The notes: a model not told the origin generated them from the sequence alone. Positions 60,203-62,601 are shown, counted from the first letter of the stretch. The stretch is 64,000 bases of DNA from an uncultured Eubacteriales bacterium (GCA_964394075.1 CAYMVI010000004.1:28563-92562), one strand, 5' to 3'. Program-made: numbers and translations.

Positions 60203-60231
60203 TTGACATAATCTGGAATTTATGGTACAAT
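60203..60231 (+). promoter_or_regulatory. Consensus sigma-A promoter (TTGACA-17-TGgTACAAT) for helicase gene
   Basis: TTGACA 60203-60208; extended -10 TGgTACAAT 60223-60231. Confidence 0.6.
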
Positions 60232-60299
60232 ATTGTTGGTTGGATTCTCAACATCATGTGGTTTATTTTTATAATTAAGAACCAAATAACAAAGGAAGG

Positions 60300-62552
60300 A
60301 TGGTAAACAACATGAAAGATCTTTACGTACAACCAACAACCGAAATCCTACACACATCAGAAACAGAGGCAATGCGCCGGATAGCAGAGGAAATCAAAGG
60401 CTCGCTATACCCCATCGCCGAAGCAATCCAGGCAATACTTGAAGCTGTAAAAACCAATCAGGTAGTTGCCATCGTTGCAGAGACAGGCGCTGGAAAAAGC
60501 ACTCAGGTCCCCATCGCGCTACTAAAGGCCGGTTATACTTACATCAATATAACCACCCCAAACAGAGCGGCGGCTACCACGCTTTCTAAGCGAGTTTCTG
60601 ACGAACTCGGCACCGAGCACGGTGAAATTGCCGGTTACCAAACGGCATTTGAAAAGCTCTTCGGACCCAAAACCAAAATCTTATACTCAACTGAGGGTCT
60701 CGAGCTGATCAAGCAGCTATGCGACGAGGAAGGTGATCCTACCAAAGTCCTTATTCTCGATGAGATTCAGGAGTGGGGCATCAACACAGAAGCACTTGTC
60801 GGCTTCTTGAAGTTCAAAATCAAAAACGGCTTCAAGACCAAGGTGATTCTGATGTCCGCTACTATGGACGAAAATGTCGCCAAATTCTTTAACGATGCAC
60901 CTGTCATCCGGGTTCCTGGTAGACAGTATCCCATCGAAGATCGAGTTGGCACCGACATTAATAAGGAAATCATCAAACTCACAGAAGCAGGCTGCAACAC
61001 ACTCGCAATTGTCCCCGGGAAGTATGAAATTTCCCAGCATGTCCAGTTCTTAAGAACCTACTTTAAGAATAACAATCTGGATGTGGATATTTTCCCGATG
61101 CACGCCGACTTACCGCTCGAAGAGCAAGAAGTGGTATTTTTGCCCACTATCAAGCCCAAAGTGGTAATCGCAACAAACGTAGCTCAGACGAGCATTACGA
61201 TTCCGGACATCGACGCAGTCGTCGATTCGGGTCTCGAAAGACACATGGCAATAATCGATGGTCTCGAGACTCTCACAATCGGCAACATCAGTCGTTCGGA
61301 CATGTTGCAAAGAAAAGGCCGTGCAGGACGCACAAAGCCCGGTATCTATGTATGGTGCGGTGAAGTTTCCAGAGATGAGCTCCAAGAGCATTCCACTCCC
61401 GAGATTTACACCGGTAGCATCACACAGGTCGTGCTTCGCCTCGCATTTGCAGGCATCACCGCTAGTGAAATCGAATTTTTTCACCAGCCCCCTATCGAAA
61501 AAATCCTGGAAGCGCAGAAAACTCTGCGTACACTTGGTGCATTCGATGAAAACAACGATATCACAGAAATCGGCAAGGTTATGTCTTTGCTCCCCATTTC
61601 TGTGCGTTATGCTCGTATGATCGTTGAGGCTGCAAAGCGTGATGTTCTGGAAGATGTGGTCACCATCGCTGCAATTCAGGAGTGTGGTGGCATTAAGTTG
61701 TCAAACGTACCCTACGGAAAGTTCACCAAAGAACTCTCCAACGATCTTTTGGCCGATCTCGATTGTTTCAACTATTTACAGAAAACAATTCGAGCTTCCA
61801 ACTGGCCGCTCAGCATTGAGGTGAATCCTTTTGAGGGATTCAATAAGCGTAACTACTACCGTATTATGGAGCTTCGCGTAAAGCTCTGCGATGTTTTGTA
61901 CAAGTTGTACGATGACATTTATTCCTCCGGTGACCGTAGACAAATTGCAATGTCTTGCGCTGCCGGCTTAGTCGAGTACCTGTACATCCGCGAAAACAAC
62001 GGTTGGTATGCCGCTACAAACGATCCTAGCAGACGCAAAATCGACAGAGCATCCTGTACGCTCCTCGCACAGAAAATGATCCTCGGCATCCCGAAGAACA
62101 TTTCTCTCTACAAGAGAGCTGCAGAAGCAGAAACCCAGGTATTGTACCTAATCAGCAATGCCATGGTTGTCGACAAGCAGATGCTGCTTGAGGTTGCACC
62201 TCACCTAATCCATTGTGAAGAAACGCGCAACTGCGACCCCACAGAAAACGACTATAGCATTTCCGAAACTCTCTATTTCGGTGATACGATTCTTGATTCG
62301 AAGGAGTATCAGATTACCGATGTGGAAGAAAGGAGAGACATGGCCGCTTCTTGGCTCGCAGAGAACACTTTTAACCCTGACGAAGAAAATGATCCTAAGC
62401 TCAACTCCGTTCTCAGAAGCAATCGTCGGAAGTTCAGAAGCTTCAACGATGCACGTACTTTTTACACAACCATTCTTTTGGCAAAGGCACGGAACTCTGT
62501 ACCTTCGCTCGCAAAGCCTAAGAATTACGGCATGCTTCAGTGCCATGATTAA
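60300..62552 (+). CDS. DEAH/RHA-family ATP-dependent helicase (HrpB/HrpA-like), GC-rich gene
   Basis: Motif I ETGAGKSTQVP, motif II LILDEIQE, MSAT, TNVAQTSITIPDIDAVVDSG, QRKGRAGR; HA2/OB-like C-terminal region; about 45-52% GC by eye; possible alternative ATG start at 60312. Confidence 0.8.
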   Translation: MVNNMKDLYVQPTTEILHTSETEAMRRIAEEIKGSLYPIAEAIQAILEAVKTNQVVAIVAETGAGKSTQVPIALLKAGYTYINITTPNRAAATTLSKRVSDELGTEHGEIAGYQTAFEKLFGPKTKILYSTEGLELIKQLCDEEGDPTKVLILDEIQEWGINTEALVGFLKFKIKNGFKTKVILMSATMDENVAKFFNDAPVIRVPGRQYPIEDRVGTDINKEIIKLTEAGCNTLAIVPGKYEISQHVQFLRTYFKNNNLDVDIFPMHADLPLEEQEVVFLPTIKPKVVIATNVAQTSITIPDIDAVVDSGLERHMAIIDGLETLTIGNISRSDMLQRKGRAGRTKPGIYVWCGEVSRDELQEHSTPEIYTGSITQVVLRLAFAGITASEIEFFHQPPIEKILEAQKTLRTLGAFDENNDITEIGKVMSLLPISVRYARMIVEAAKRDVLEDVVTIAAIQECGGIKLSNVPYGKFTKELSNDLLADLDCFNYLQKTIRASNWPLSIEVNPFEGFNKRNYYRIMELRVKLCDVLYKLYDDIYSSGDRRQIAMSCAAGLVEYLYIRENNGWYAATNDPSRRKIDRASCTLLAQKMILGIPKNISLYKRAAEAETQVLYLISNAMVVDKQMLLEVAPHLIHCEETRNCDPTENDYSISETLYFGDTILDSKEYQITDVEERRDMAASWLAENTFNPDEENDPKLNSVLRSNRRKFRSFNDARTFYTTILLAKARNSVPSLAKPKNYGMLQCHD

Positions 62553-62568
62553 AAAGTTTTGCAAATTT

Positions 62569-62601
62569 AAAGGACGCTCGAAAGAGCGTCCTTGTTTTTT
62601 G
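62569..62601. terminator. Bidirectional intrinsic terminator
   Basis: AAAGGACGCTC-GAAA-GAGCGTCCTT + T7. Confidence 0.75.

Follow-up and report, generated by a model that had tools for sequence, protein, structure and literature searches.

Helicases of the DEAH/RHA family, which belong to superfamily 2 (SF2), are poorly understood in bacteria and rare in Firmicutes. Among the bacterial members that have been described, HrpA is a 3′-to-5′ RNA helicase (PDB 6ZWW, 9GFT) that splits collided ribosomes and provides a mechanistic model of 3′-to-5′ RNA translocation (PMC8325345, PMC11419001), while HrpB of E. coli and P. aeruginosa (PDB 6EUD, 6HEG) is a stand-alone protein found chiefly in proteobacteria and actinobacteria (PMC7237152). 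Here we analyse a gene for a helicase of this type in a 64-kb stretch of chromosome from an uncultured Eubacteriales bacterium (GCA_964394075.1, CAYMVI010000004.1:28563-92562; the whole 64,000 nucleotides are called the window below), together with about 150 kb of related loci. The gene forms a transcription unit of its own, and its codon usage is unlike that of its host. Gene classes marked by their codons are known: the bldA/TTA-dependent genes of Streptomyces are such a function-specific class. For Salmonella, a preprint reports that virulence genes carry a codon signature that leads to better translation under starvation and host-mimicking conditions, and that functionally organised codon-usage landscapes exist across bacterial genomes (bioRxiv 10.64898/2026.02.22.707322). 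The helicase gene resembles the Salmonella virulence genes in that its codon usage departs both from the bulk genome and from the ribosomal-type optimum, and in its use of host-rare codons. However, the direction is reversed relative to the Salmonella and bldA classes (GC-rich codons in an AT-rich genome), the shift spans nearly all codon families rather than one codon or tRNA, and regulation is in our case putative.

The unit also resembles phage morons, which consist of one gene with its own sigma-70-type promoter and intrinsic terminator and have a deviant composition that is read as a sign of recent arrival (PMC3594210). All of these anatomical features are present here: a single gene, its own promoter, a factor-independent terminator and a composition unlike that of its neighbours. 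Unlike a moron, however, the helicase unit is chromosomal and lies outside any recognisable prophage (no prophage structural genes were found in the window around the helicase, whose neighbours are DnaB_2/DnaI-like, SbcCD-like and TraG/VirD4-like), it is old and keeps its synteny throughout a clade, and the deviation in composition has been maintained. Atypical GC content and codon usage are usually taken to indicate that a gene came by horizontal transfer not long ago, since foreign composition is assumed to ameliorate, and a preliminary description of this locus, made from its sequence, had read the helicase in just that way. We instead favour, with a probability of roughly 55%, the explanation that the helicase is a long-resident, vertically inherited single-gene unit with a stationary codon regime, held in place by selection on codon or mRNA composition.

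The window has a GC content of about 31%, and the three 1-kb bins over 60-63 kb have values of 0.43, 0.47 and 0.41. They contain an open reading frame (ORF) of 750 aa, 60300-62552 on the forward strand, which is a monocistronic DEAH/RHA-type helicase gene. Its GC content is 0.471 overall and 0.522, 0.365 and 0.527 at first, second and third codon positions (GC1, GC2 and GC3), as compared with a GC of 0.29-0.32 and a GC3 of 0.18-0.24 in the adjoining genes and a median GC3 of 0.216 over the window. Set against its host (GC 0.47 vs 0.31; GC3 0.53 vs about 0.19), the composition is strongly atypical, and relative codon usage is uncorrelated with that of the host. The shift at third positions is mainly from A to C, with A falling from 0.42 in the host to 0.22 (A3) and C rising from 0.09 to 0.33 (C3), and it is asymmetric between strands, as G3 is only 0.19. 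The GC-rich tract coincides with the coding sequence; the leader, the spacers, the intergenic DNA and the adjacent genes are all AT-rich. The preliminary description had noted a helicase ORF of 45-52% GC in a chromosome of about 30% GC and had proposed that GC and codon usage be computed; both the contrast and its strength are confirmed by these values.

We compared the window with seven relatives, giving eight lineages in all, on contigs from different metagenomes and metagenome-assembled genomes (MAGs); among others, the homologues come from 'Clostridia bacterium RGIG4047' of roe-deer cecum and from an MAG labelled 'uncultured Eubacteriales'. The helicase homologues are 98, 93, 64, 53, 53, 48 and 44% identical to the window's protein, and in eight of eight lineages the gene sits in the identical slot, in the order dnaB_2-like gene, dnaI-like gene, a 472-aa gene on the reverse strand, helicase, a 154-aa gene, sbcC-like, sbcD-like and virD4-like genes, so that neither patchy presence nor a variable insertion site was seen. 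The 154-aa gene is convergent with the helicase, and a dnaJ-like gene and a gene for a surface-layer homology (SLH) protein follow beyond the virD4-like gene. Divergence of the neighbouring proteins follows the ranking seen for the helicase (DnaI identities are 99, 98, 86, 74, 74, 76 and 61%). Neighbour-joining gave one topology for the helicase, DnaB_2 and the 472-aa protein alike, with DnaI differing in one short branch; the gene tree is not incongruent with host or neighbours. Against close relatives, the ratio of nonsynonymous to synonymous divergence (dN/dS) of the helicase is 0.05-0.06, and its synonymous divergence (dS) of 0.18 and 0.78 is similar to that of the neighbours. A search of phage and plasmid collections with the DNA of 59950-62650 gave no match. 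It is therefore well supported by these sequence comparisons that the helicase is a vertically inherited, long-time resident of the clade and not a recent import. With synonymous sites saturated among the lineages and GC3 nevertheless high (see below), any transfer must predate the clade. If there was such an early acquisition, its source may have been a helicase family with the motif DE(V/I)HEW, found in bacteria of the candidate phyla radiation (CPR) and on very large phage-like contigs.

The composition of the gene is likewise conserved, although its individual nucleotides are not. Helicase GC3 in the seven relatives is 0.50, 0.51, 0.43, 0.53, 0.35, 0.48 and 0.41, as compared with about 0.15-0.25 in flanking genes. 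We assessed saturation at four-fold degenerate sites under identical amino acids. Between the window and the relative L007, 46 third bases are identical as compared with 51.7 expected by chance, and 89 sites agree in being GC or AT, with 88.6 expected; between the window and the more divergent L113, 40 are identical and 39.1 are expected. Nonetheless, the GC content of four-fold sites (GC4) is still 0.39-0.47 in each saturated helicase sequence, so amelioration toward host composition is not observed. In a two-state simulation of neutral decay under the host bias, the GC excess already shrinks by between one third and one half at the distance between the window and L001. Codon preferences persist as well: relative codon usage of the helicases correlates at r = 0.5-0.8 across saturated lineages and at about 0 with the host background, whereas the host backgrounds correlate at 0.93-0.97 with one another. 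The following codons illustrate the contrast (relative usage in the helicases, then in the host background):

CCC: 0.30-0.46 in helicases; 0.01-0.02 in the host background
ACC: 0.26-0.39 in helicases; 0.02-0.03 in the host background
CTC: 0.18-0.37 in helicases; 0.01-0.02 in the host background
CAG: 0.45-0.75 in helicases; 0.06-0.23 in the host background

The helicase composition is thus stationary, a conclusion that we regard as well supported: since synonymous sites are saturated while GC3 remains high, the composition is maintained and is not a relic. Such persistence rules out both recent transfer and slow amelioration. The test that the preliminary description had set for its own proposal, namely whether the phylogeny tracks the host lineage and the GC matches that of core genes, therefore came out divided, as the tree does track the host lineage but the GC never matches core genes.

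Some simpler accounts of the composition were considered and set aside. The protein sequence does not force GC-rich coding, as homologues of 41% identity in contigs of 25% GC have a GC3 of 0.12-0.13. The codon usage of highly expressed genes is also rejected as far as it could be compared, because CCC, ACC and CTC are close to zero in the genes for the SLH wall protein and pyruvate kinase, the two probable highly expressed genes that made up this comparison (it included no ribosomal protein genes). Nor is a GC excess the rule in the family: many CPR homologues lie 6-12 points above their flanks, but others, and the viral homologues, do not.

The transcription unit and its upstream region have the following features:

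58529-59947, reverse strand: 472-aa gene, transcribed divergently from the helicase
60001..60029, reverse strand: promoter-like site TTGAAA-17-TAAAAT, putatively serving the divergent 472-aa gene (10 of 12 matches in the scan)
60030..60202, no strand: spacer of variable length between the divergent promoters, not conserved
60203..60231, forward strand: sigma-A-type promoter TTGACA-17-TGgTACAAT with extended -10 element, the top promoter-like site of the scan
60232..60311, forward strand: AT-rich 5′ untranslated region, with a small hairpin (60259-60264/60279-60284) upstream of the Shine-Dalgarno sequence
60292-60299, forward strand: Shine-Dalgarno sequence AAGGAAGG
60312..62552, forward strand: helicase coding sequence, 746 aa from the ATG at 60312 or 750 aa from the ATG at 60300
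62570..62600, forward strand: intrinsic terminator, AAGGACGCTC-GAAA-GAGCGTCCTT followed by a T-run, with the hairpin at 62570-62593; the best terminator-like site of the scan

The promoter, TTGACA (60203) and TACAAT (60231) at a distance of 17 nt and with a TG before the latter, has 11 of 12 matches and is the best site in a 4.8-kb scan of 58.4-63.2 kb. It is also conserved: the arrangement AACTTGACATAAT...TA(C/T)AATATTG is kept in six lineages whose synonymous sites are saturated, and the promoters in L113 and L112 read TTGACA/TTGACC-17-TATAAT. The terminator is conserved by compensatory changes, with hairpins formed by GGACGCCC/GGGCGTCC in L001 and by GGGCGCTC/GAGCGCCC in L006. The consensus promoter, the strong GC-rich terminator and the stand-alone nature of the unit, all claimed by the preliminary description, were thus borne out, as both signals are the top sites of the scan and both are conserved in relatives. 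Of the two possible start codons, the ATG at 60312 is the likelier, judging from the sequence, because the Shine-Dalgarno sequence ends at 60299 and so touches the first ATG, and because the genes of close relatives are called from the second. Upstream of the Shine-Dalgarno sequence, the relatives have hairpins too (GCCAT..ATGGC in L009, L112 and L113, and GTCAT..ATGAC in L007, a compensatory change); however, folding z-scores of the leader hairpin are not significant, its energies being no better than those of shuffled sequences. A search with Rfam models of the whole window, and of 59.9-62.7 kb with a permissive threshold, returned tRNAs and one match at chance level, but no upstream riboswitch or small RNA.

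While the block that contains the divergent promoter-like site is conserved in the upstream regions of all relatives, the intergenic region as a whole varies from 188 to 468 bp owing to the spacer. In the window, the spacer contains two copies of CTATTTTTC within 72 bp (60088-60096 and 60159-60167), an inverted near-copy (60137-60147) and two tandem 20-mers (60150-60189). The proposal that the repeated CTATTTTTC motifs are operator sites was rejected, as they occur at chance frequency over the window (4 found, 2.4 expected), belong to a spacer whose length differs between lineages and are lacking in L007, L009, L112 and L113. A search for repeats within the locus found only short, chance-like pairs besides the upstream 20-mers and the terminator.

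The helicase protein comprises the following parts, delimited by Pfam matches, the clade alignment and an AlphaFold model:

60411..61484, forward strand: ATPase core of two RecA-like domains, RecA1 (about aa 38-215) and RecA2 (about aa 216-395)
61494..62312, forward strand: winged helix (about aa 399-461), ratchet/HA2 helical bundle (about aa 482-556) and beta-barrel resembling an oligonucleotide/oligosaccharide-binding (OB) fold (about aa 561-671)
62322..62537, forward strand: helical C-terminal extension (about aa 675-746), which matches no family but is conserved within the clade

The SF2 motifs found include I (AETGAGKST), Ia (TPNRAAA), Ib (TEGLE), II (DEIQE), III (SAT), V (TNVAQTSITI) and VI (QRKGRAGR) as well as LAIVPG, and most are invariant or nearly so among 25 clade members. 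The two RecA-like domains with motifs I, Ia, Ib, III, IV, V and VI place the protein among the DEAH/RHA helicases of SF2. Pfam matches are to DEAD, Helicase_C, HA2_N (30.8 bits) and, partially, HA2_C (21.5 bits). The AlphaFold model, built on 25 clade sequences with a mean predicted local distance difference test score (pLDDT) of 84.7, has RecA1, RecA2, the winged helix, a helical ratchet (helices within 399-556), a beta-barrel (561-671) and a helical tail (675-746), and it predicts that the module of winged helix, ratchet and OB fold packs on the core. Foldseek searches with this model aligned 640-750 columns to HrpA, DHX8, Prp43 and Prp2 (E about 1e-42 to 1e-45). All core motifs named in the preliminary description (ETGAGKST, DEIQE, SAT and QRKGRAGR) are therefore present, and its suggestion of an HA2/OB-like C-terminal region is supported by Pfam, by the model and by Foldseek. 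On the other hand, motif II does not follow the D-E-x-H pattern; all other SF2 motifs are canonical. It is DEIQ in the window's protein and DE(I/L/A/V/F/C)Q in nearly all clade members, while the closest relatives outside the clade (33-41% identity), in CPR bacteria, other Clostridia and IMG/VR contigs of 95-250 kb, have DE(V/I)HEW. The change from H to Q recalls human DQX1, the 'DEAQ-box' protein.

Comparison with the known helicases suggests that the protein is orthologous to none of them. With HrpB it has in common its similar size, the order RecA1-RecA2-winged helix-ratchet-OB and the lack of a long N-terminal domain, and the HrpB model TIGR01970 is its best NCBIfam match (2.5e-75, residues 38-463 only). 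However, it reaches 254 bits where the equivalog cut-off is 546 (and 215 vs 1053 for PRK11664), Pfam finds no HrpB C-terminal domain, motif II is DEIQ rather than DEFH, and the helicase is confined to one clade of Clostridia, which contrasts with the distribution of HrpB given above. Foldseek ranks HrpA first (E = 4.7e-45, 710 aligned columns), with the core and the ratchet/OB region in common, but here too the NCBIfam match covers residues 38-463 only and the scores are far from family level (240 bits vs a cut-off of 723 for TIGR01967; 214 vs 1400 for PRK11131), and the protein, with 746 aa as compared with about 1300 aa, lacks the N-terminal APHB domain and the C-terminal region of about 500 aa. 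Among solved structures the highest sequence similarity is to the spliceosomal helicases DHX8/Prp22, Prp2/DHX16 and Prp43/DHX15 (DHX8: E = 3e-63, residues 37-460), with DHX8/Prp22 scoring 217 bits, HrpA 182 and HrpB 150. The full-length fold of these spliceosomal proteins superposes with the helicase model (template modelling score about 0.6-0.7) at an identity of just 22-28%; but bacteria have neither a spliceosome nor G-patch partners, and the helicase's immediate family, with its DE(V/I)HEW signature, is bacterial and phage-borne. On this sequence evidence, the helicase is of DEAH/RHA type but is neither HrpA nor HrpB, and forms a clade-specific DExQ branch; of the earlier label 'DEAH/HrpB-like', the first half stands and membership in HrpB does not. 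By analogy with its relatives, it probably remodels RNA or ribonucleoprotein by ATP-driven 3′-to-5′ translocation along single-stranded RNA.

Other genes of the window are compositional outliers as well. The preliminary description had presented it as standing alone, which is correct for the transcription unit but not for the composition, as there are at least three further single-gene units with their own promoter, a GC-rich terminator hairpin and raised GC3:

33197..34009, forward strand: gene for a divergent HD-domain phosphohydrolase of 270 aa; GC 0.48, GC3 0.55; monocistronic
41918..42475, reverse strand: gene for a predicted lipoprotein of 185 aa with lipobox LFAC; GC 0.42, GC3 0.44; monocistronic; adjoins tRNA-Lys(CTT)
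44958..45230, forward strand: gene for a 90-aa protein without a Pfam match; GC 0.48, GC3 0.57; own promoter and terminator

With the helicase, four units in the window thus have moron-like anatomy. The HD gene directly follows tRNA-Arg(TCT) and has a TTTACA-17-TGgTATAAT promoter and its own terminator. Its family has 43 members among 5.8 billion clusters; a homologue of 61% identity at a different locus has a GC3 of 0.60 as compared with about 0.17 in the flanks, and the AlphaFold model, although confident (pLDDT 95.5), gives only weak fold matches to HD phosphohydrolases such as 2PJQ and YpgQ. The lipoprotein family has 24 members among the 5.8 billion clusters, and homologues, one at the same locus and one elsewhere, have a GC3 of 0.37-0.40 as compared with about 0.2 in the flanks. 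The 90-aa gene lies just upstream of cotJA-cotJB-cotJC, and its protein is matched by 29 representative clusters among 1.84 billion proteins. Codon usage of the HD and 90-aa genes correlates with that of the helicases at r = 0.44-0.61, and A3, which is 0.42 in the host, is down to 0.14 (HD gene) and 0.10 (90-aa gene). All three proteins belong to small families confined to the lineage. The units recall morons in their anatomy, but they are chromosomal and old.

The favoured explanation has several competitors. That the helicase unit was lately inserted beside a decaying mobile element and has retained the GC content of its donor would account for the contrast of 47% with 31% GC, for the codon usage unlike that of the host, for the self-contained unit and for the presence nearby of TraG/VirD4-like genes, one of them split; HrpB-like genes in Firmicutes, moreover, are reported to have probably come by transfer (PMC7237152). 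This recent acquisition, the central claim of the preliminary description, is nevertheless contradicted by a gene, promoter and site common to eight lineages, down to 44% identity of the helicase and 61% of DnaI, by congruent trees, by saturated synonymous sites and by the lack of a phage or plasmid DNA match, and we consider it extremely improbable. A 20-kb block that is spreading recently as an element is contradicted as well, since dS in the flanks reaches saturation. Recurrent replacement would mean that each lineage repeatedly re-acquired a GC-rich allele in the same slot from a circulating, GC-richer phage or plasmid; relatives of the helicase do occur in large IMG/VR contigs and one of the HD protein in a phage-like contig, and the HD and lipoprotein genes are found at different loci in different lineages, beside tRNA genes. 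However, the helicase tree equals the neighbour trees, the closest relatives outside the clade are just 38-41% identical and have DExH instead of the clade-specific DExQ, the viral copies in AT-rich contigs are not GC-rich relative to their own genomes, and phage and plasmid collections again offer no DNA match. Because trees are congruent and DExQ is confined to the clade, we regard repeated replacement from a mobile pool as highly unlikely. We are equally doubtful of a role in defence against phages or plasmids, for example with the helicase and the GC-rich HD hydrolase acting as a split Cas3-like helicase-nuclease. The two have an unusual codon regime in common, both families are narrow and lineage-restricted, and both have weak Cas3 matches (E = 5e-5 for the helicase and 1.4e-3 for the HD protein), but these matches cover generic SF2 and HD motifs only, far below family level, the two genes are 26 kb apart and the HD gene changes locus independently. 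PADLOC models of defence systems found only such motif-level Cas3 matches (E of 5e-5 or weaker) and no partner genes; there are no CRISPR or other defence genes nearby, and the neighbourhoods of distant homologues, in a small sample, are not defence islands, contrary to the association that the earlier note had thought worth checking.

A neutral local process, such as a mutation or repair bias specific to the locus or a recombination hot spot with GC-biased gene conversion, would fit a stationary composition with normal dS, the increase in GC1 and GC2, and the range of dS from 0.18 to 0.42 among neighbouring genes between the window and its closest relative, which suggests recombination between strains in this region. 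Yet the GC-rich tract ends at the boundaries of the coding sequence, with AT-rich leader, spacer and adjacent genes; C is well above G, a strand asymmetry that gene conversion does not predict; and the same regime occurs at unrelated loci, with the HD gene being GC-rich at two different ones. Transcription is linked to a C-to-T bias on the coding strand, and the shift observed here runs opposite to it. For these reasons, we consider such a neutral local process unlikely. Selection on the mRNA molecule rather than on its decoding would favour an A-poor, C-rich message, whether for escape from a ribonuclease or toxin that prefers A or U, for a longer life (e.g. in spores) or for the avoidance of internal promoters and terminators. 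In its favour, A3 is the most depleted base, amino-acid composition is shifted in the same direction, and the host is a spore-former with SpoIIE, SpoIVA and CotJABC. The AT-rich leader would remain unprotected, however, and the proposal differs from the favoured explanation only in the level at which selection acts; we treat it as an unlikely variant. Selection on codon or mRNA composition is thus the most likely cause of the regime, as we infer from stationarity, because transfer, amelioration, gene conversion, mutational bias and recurrent replacement are all argued against; we cannot tell whether it acts on decoding (through tRNA subsets or modification) or on the mRNA itself. Several observations weigh against this explanation. 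GC3 is uneven among lineages (0.35 in L009, 0.41 in L113 and 0.43 in L006), so maintenance is not uniform. GC1 and GC2 are raised too (0.52 and 0.37, as compared with about 0.45 and 0.31), so that base composition, rather than the choice of tRNA, may be what is under pressure. The polarised substitutions in the helicase, 39 from AT to GC and 37 from GC to AT (211:100 in the flanks), would fit equilibrium, but our own simulation revealed parsimony artefacts, with outgroup homoplasy yielding similar ratios under neutral decay, and we dropped this line of evidence. As to function, the most divergent homologues (P0041-43 and L113) have a degenerate motif II, DDFGK, which casts doubt on a uniform function, and the neighbours of the helicase are DNA-transaction genes, so that RNA is a putative substrate.

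Under selection on codon or mRNA composition, the system might work as follows. The host is an uncultured clade of spore-forming gut Clostridia with about 31% GC. The unit is read from a conserved near-consensus sigma-A promoter through an AT-rich leader and a strong Shine-Dalgarno sequence into the coding sequence and up to the intrinsic terminator, and the protein, resembling HrpA, HrpB and Prp43 but orthologous to none, would remodel RNA or ribonucleoprotein as a 3′-to-5′ translocase. Its codon regime, with C-rich and A-depleted third positions and a preference for CCC, ACC, CTC and CAG, has been preserved through complete synonymous turnover. A change in GC/AT odds from 0.18 to 0.82 needs ln(4.6) by our own calculation, so that selection of about S = 1.5 per site on codon choice or mRNA composition would set the helicase gene and at least three other units apart from bulk translation, and their protein output would hinge on a decoding state or tRNA subset other than that used for AT-rich genes. 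A bolder version holds that the GC-rich, NNC-codon genes (helicase, HD, 90-aa and perhaps lipoprotein) form a translationally 'orthogonal' regulon, in which codon usage is a sensor that gates an RNA-remodelling or nuclease response. Strong constitutive promoters would be combined with efficient decoding only once a minor tRNA set becomes available, for example in stationary phase, during sporulation or germination, with a change in queuosine or U34-modification status, or upon arrival of a GC-richer phage that brings its own tRNAs; selection on this codon gate would then have kept them at 47% GC, in a genome of 31% GC, for as long as the clade has existed. We consider this version speculative and very improbable.

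The strongest compositional outlier of the window is thus among the most stably inherited genes of the clade, which shows that the compositional detection of transfer can err badly. The locus also suggests that a few single-gene units in an AT-rich Firmicute make up a class with a codon regime that is kept up despite the mutational bias of the genome. Should the cause be translation that depends on the decoding state, codon-based regulation of bacterial genes could be studied in these units as a clean natural system; and the helicase itself adds a clade-specific DExQ variant to the DEAH/RHA family.

The surroundings of the helicase are those of an ordinary spore-former chromosome, with RsmB, FeoB, LonC, SpoIVA, glycogen enzymes, pyruvate kinase, SpoIIE, SMC, CotJABC and MnmA encoded in the window. 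The adjacent region 52690-59947 had been described as a degraded mobile-element remnant. It is in fact a collinear, clade-wide block whose DnaB_2/DnaI-like proteins are 61-99% identical and in which only a TraG-like gene is visibly split. This TraG/VirD4-like ATPase gene, at 52993-54654 on the forward strand, consists of an N-terminal part (52993-53430, 145 aa) and a C-terminal part (53524-54654, 376 aa), separated by a stretch with stop codons where the Walker A motif is expected, so that the P-loop is lost; the gene in L009 is intact, with 546 aa and a Walker A loop. Nevertheless, the C-terminal part is 81-98% identical across the clade. The dnaB_2-like and dnaI-like pair may be host primosome genes, and the block that contains the helicase could be a very old integrated element or else core chromosome. 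The 154-aa protein is the sole neighbour with matches to phage families. Between the window and its closest relative, L005, dS is 0.18-0.19 in the helicase and the 472-aa gene and 0.36-0.42 in the dnaI-like gene, mnmA and a 297-aa gene; such differences of more than twofold between adjacent genes in this region (51272-59947) suggest recombination between strains.

Several further observations concern the other GC-rich units. Of the four GC-rich genes, three have tRNA genes no more than about 1.5 kb away (window 32997-33073, 41702-41777 and 43226-43460; L091 3681-3756). The genome retains C34 isoacceptors for codons that ordinary genes seldom use: tRNA-Lys(CTT), for AAG, and tRNA-Thr(CGT), for ACG, the latter in a relative. 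Homologues of the HD gene lie at 6001-6831 of L091 and 6001-6777 of L093, those of the lipoprotein gene at 6001-6567 of L111 and 6001-6567 of L110, and a homologue of the HD protein with 46% identity is encoded on a phage-like contig of 88 kb beside two other HD proteins. A promoter and an unusual, long tRNA-like gene follow the HD or lipoprotein gene in two of these contigs (L091 7132-7247 and L110 about 6720-6960, both on the forward strand). In the L091 sequence the acceptor, D and T arms are canonical, but the place of the anticodon arm, normally 11 nt, is taken by 53 nt (Rfam tRNA, 36 bits), and the one in L110 has a similar T-arm and acceptor at its end; ARAGORN called neither of the two.

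Elsewhere in the clade, intergenic DNA contains short GC-rich palindromic repeats of the type GGGGAC(A/G)(G/T)(T/C)CCC(C/T), within longer inverted repeats (L113 about 9850-9930 and about 12330-12440; L110 about 7330-7480), which may be elements akin to repetitive extragenic palindromes (REP) or miniature inverted-repeat transposable elements (MITEs). The window itself encodes two paralogues of the Ham1/RdgB-type non-canonical NTP pyrophosphatase within its 64 kb, at 6654-7247 on the reverse strand, where GC3 is mildly raised to 0.32, and at 47509-48087 on the forward strand. Finally, the regions 21251-28117 (reverse strand) and 28225-28764 (forward strand) include a very long ORF of 2288 aa, after which comes the window's most AT-rich part, with a GC of 0.21-0.23.

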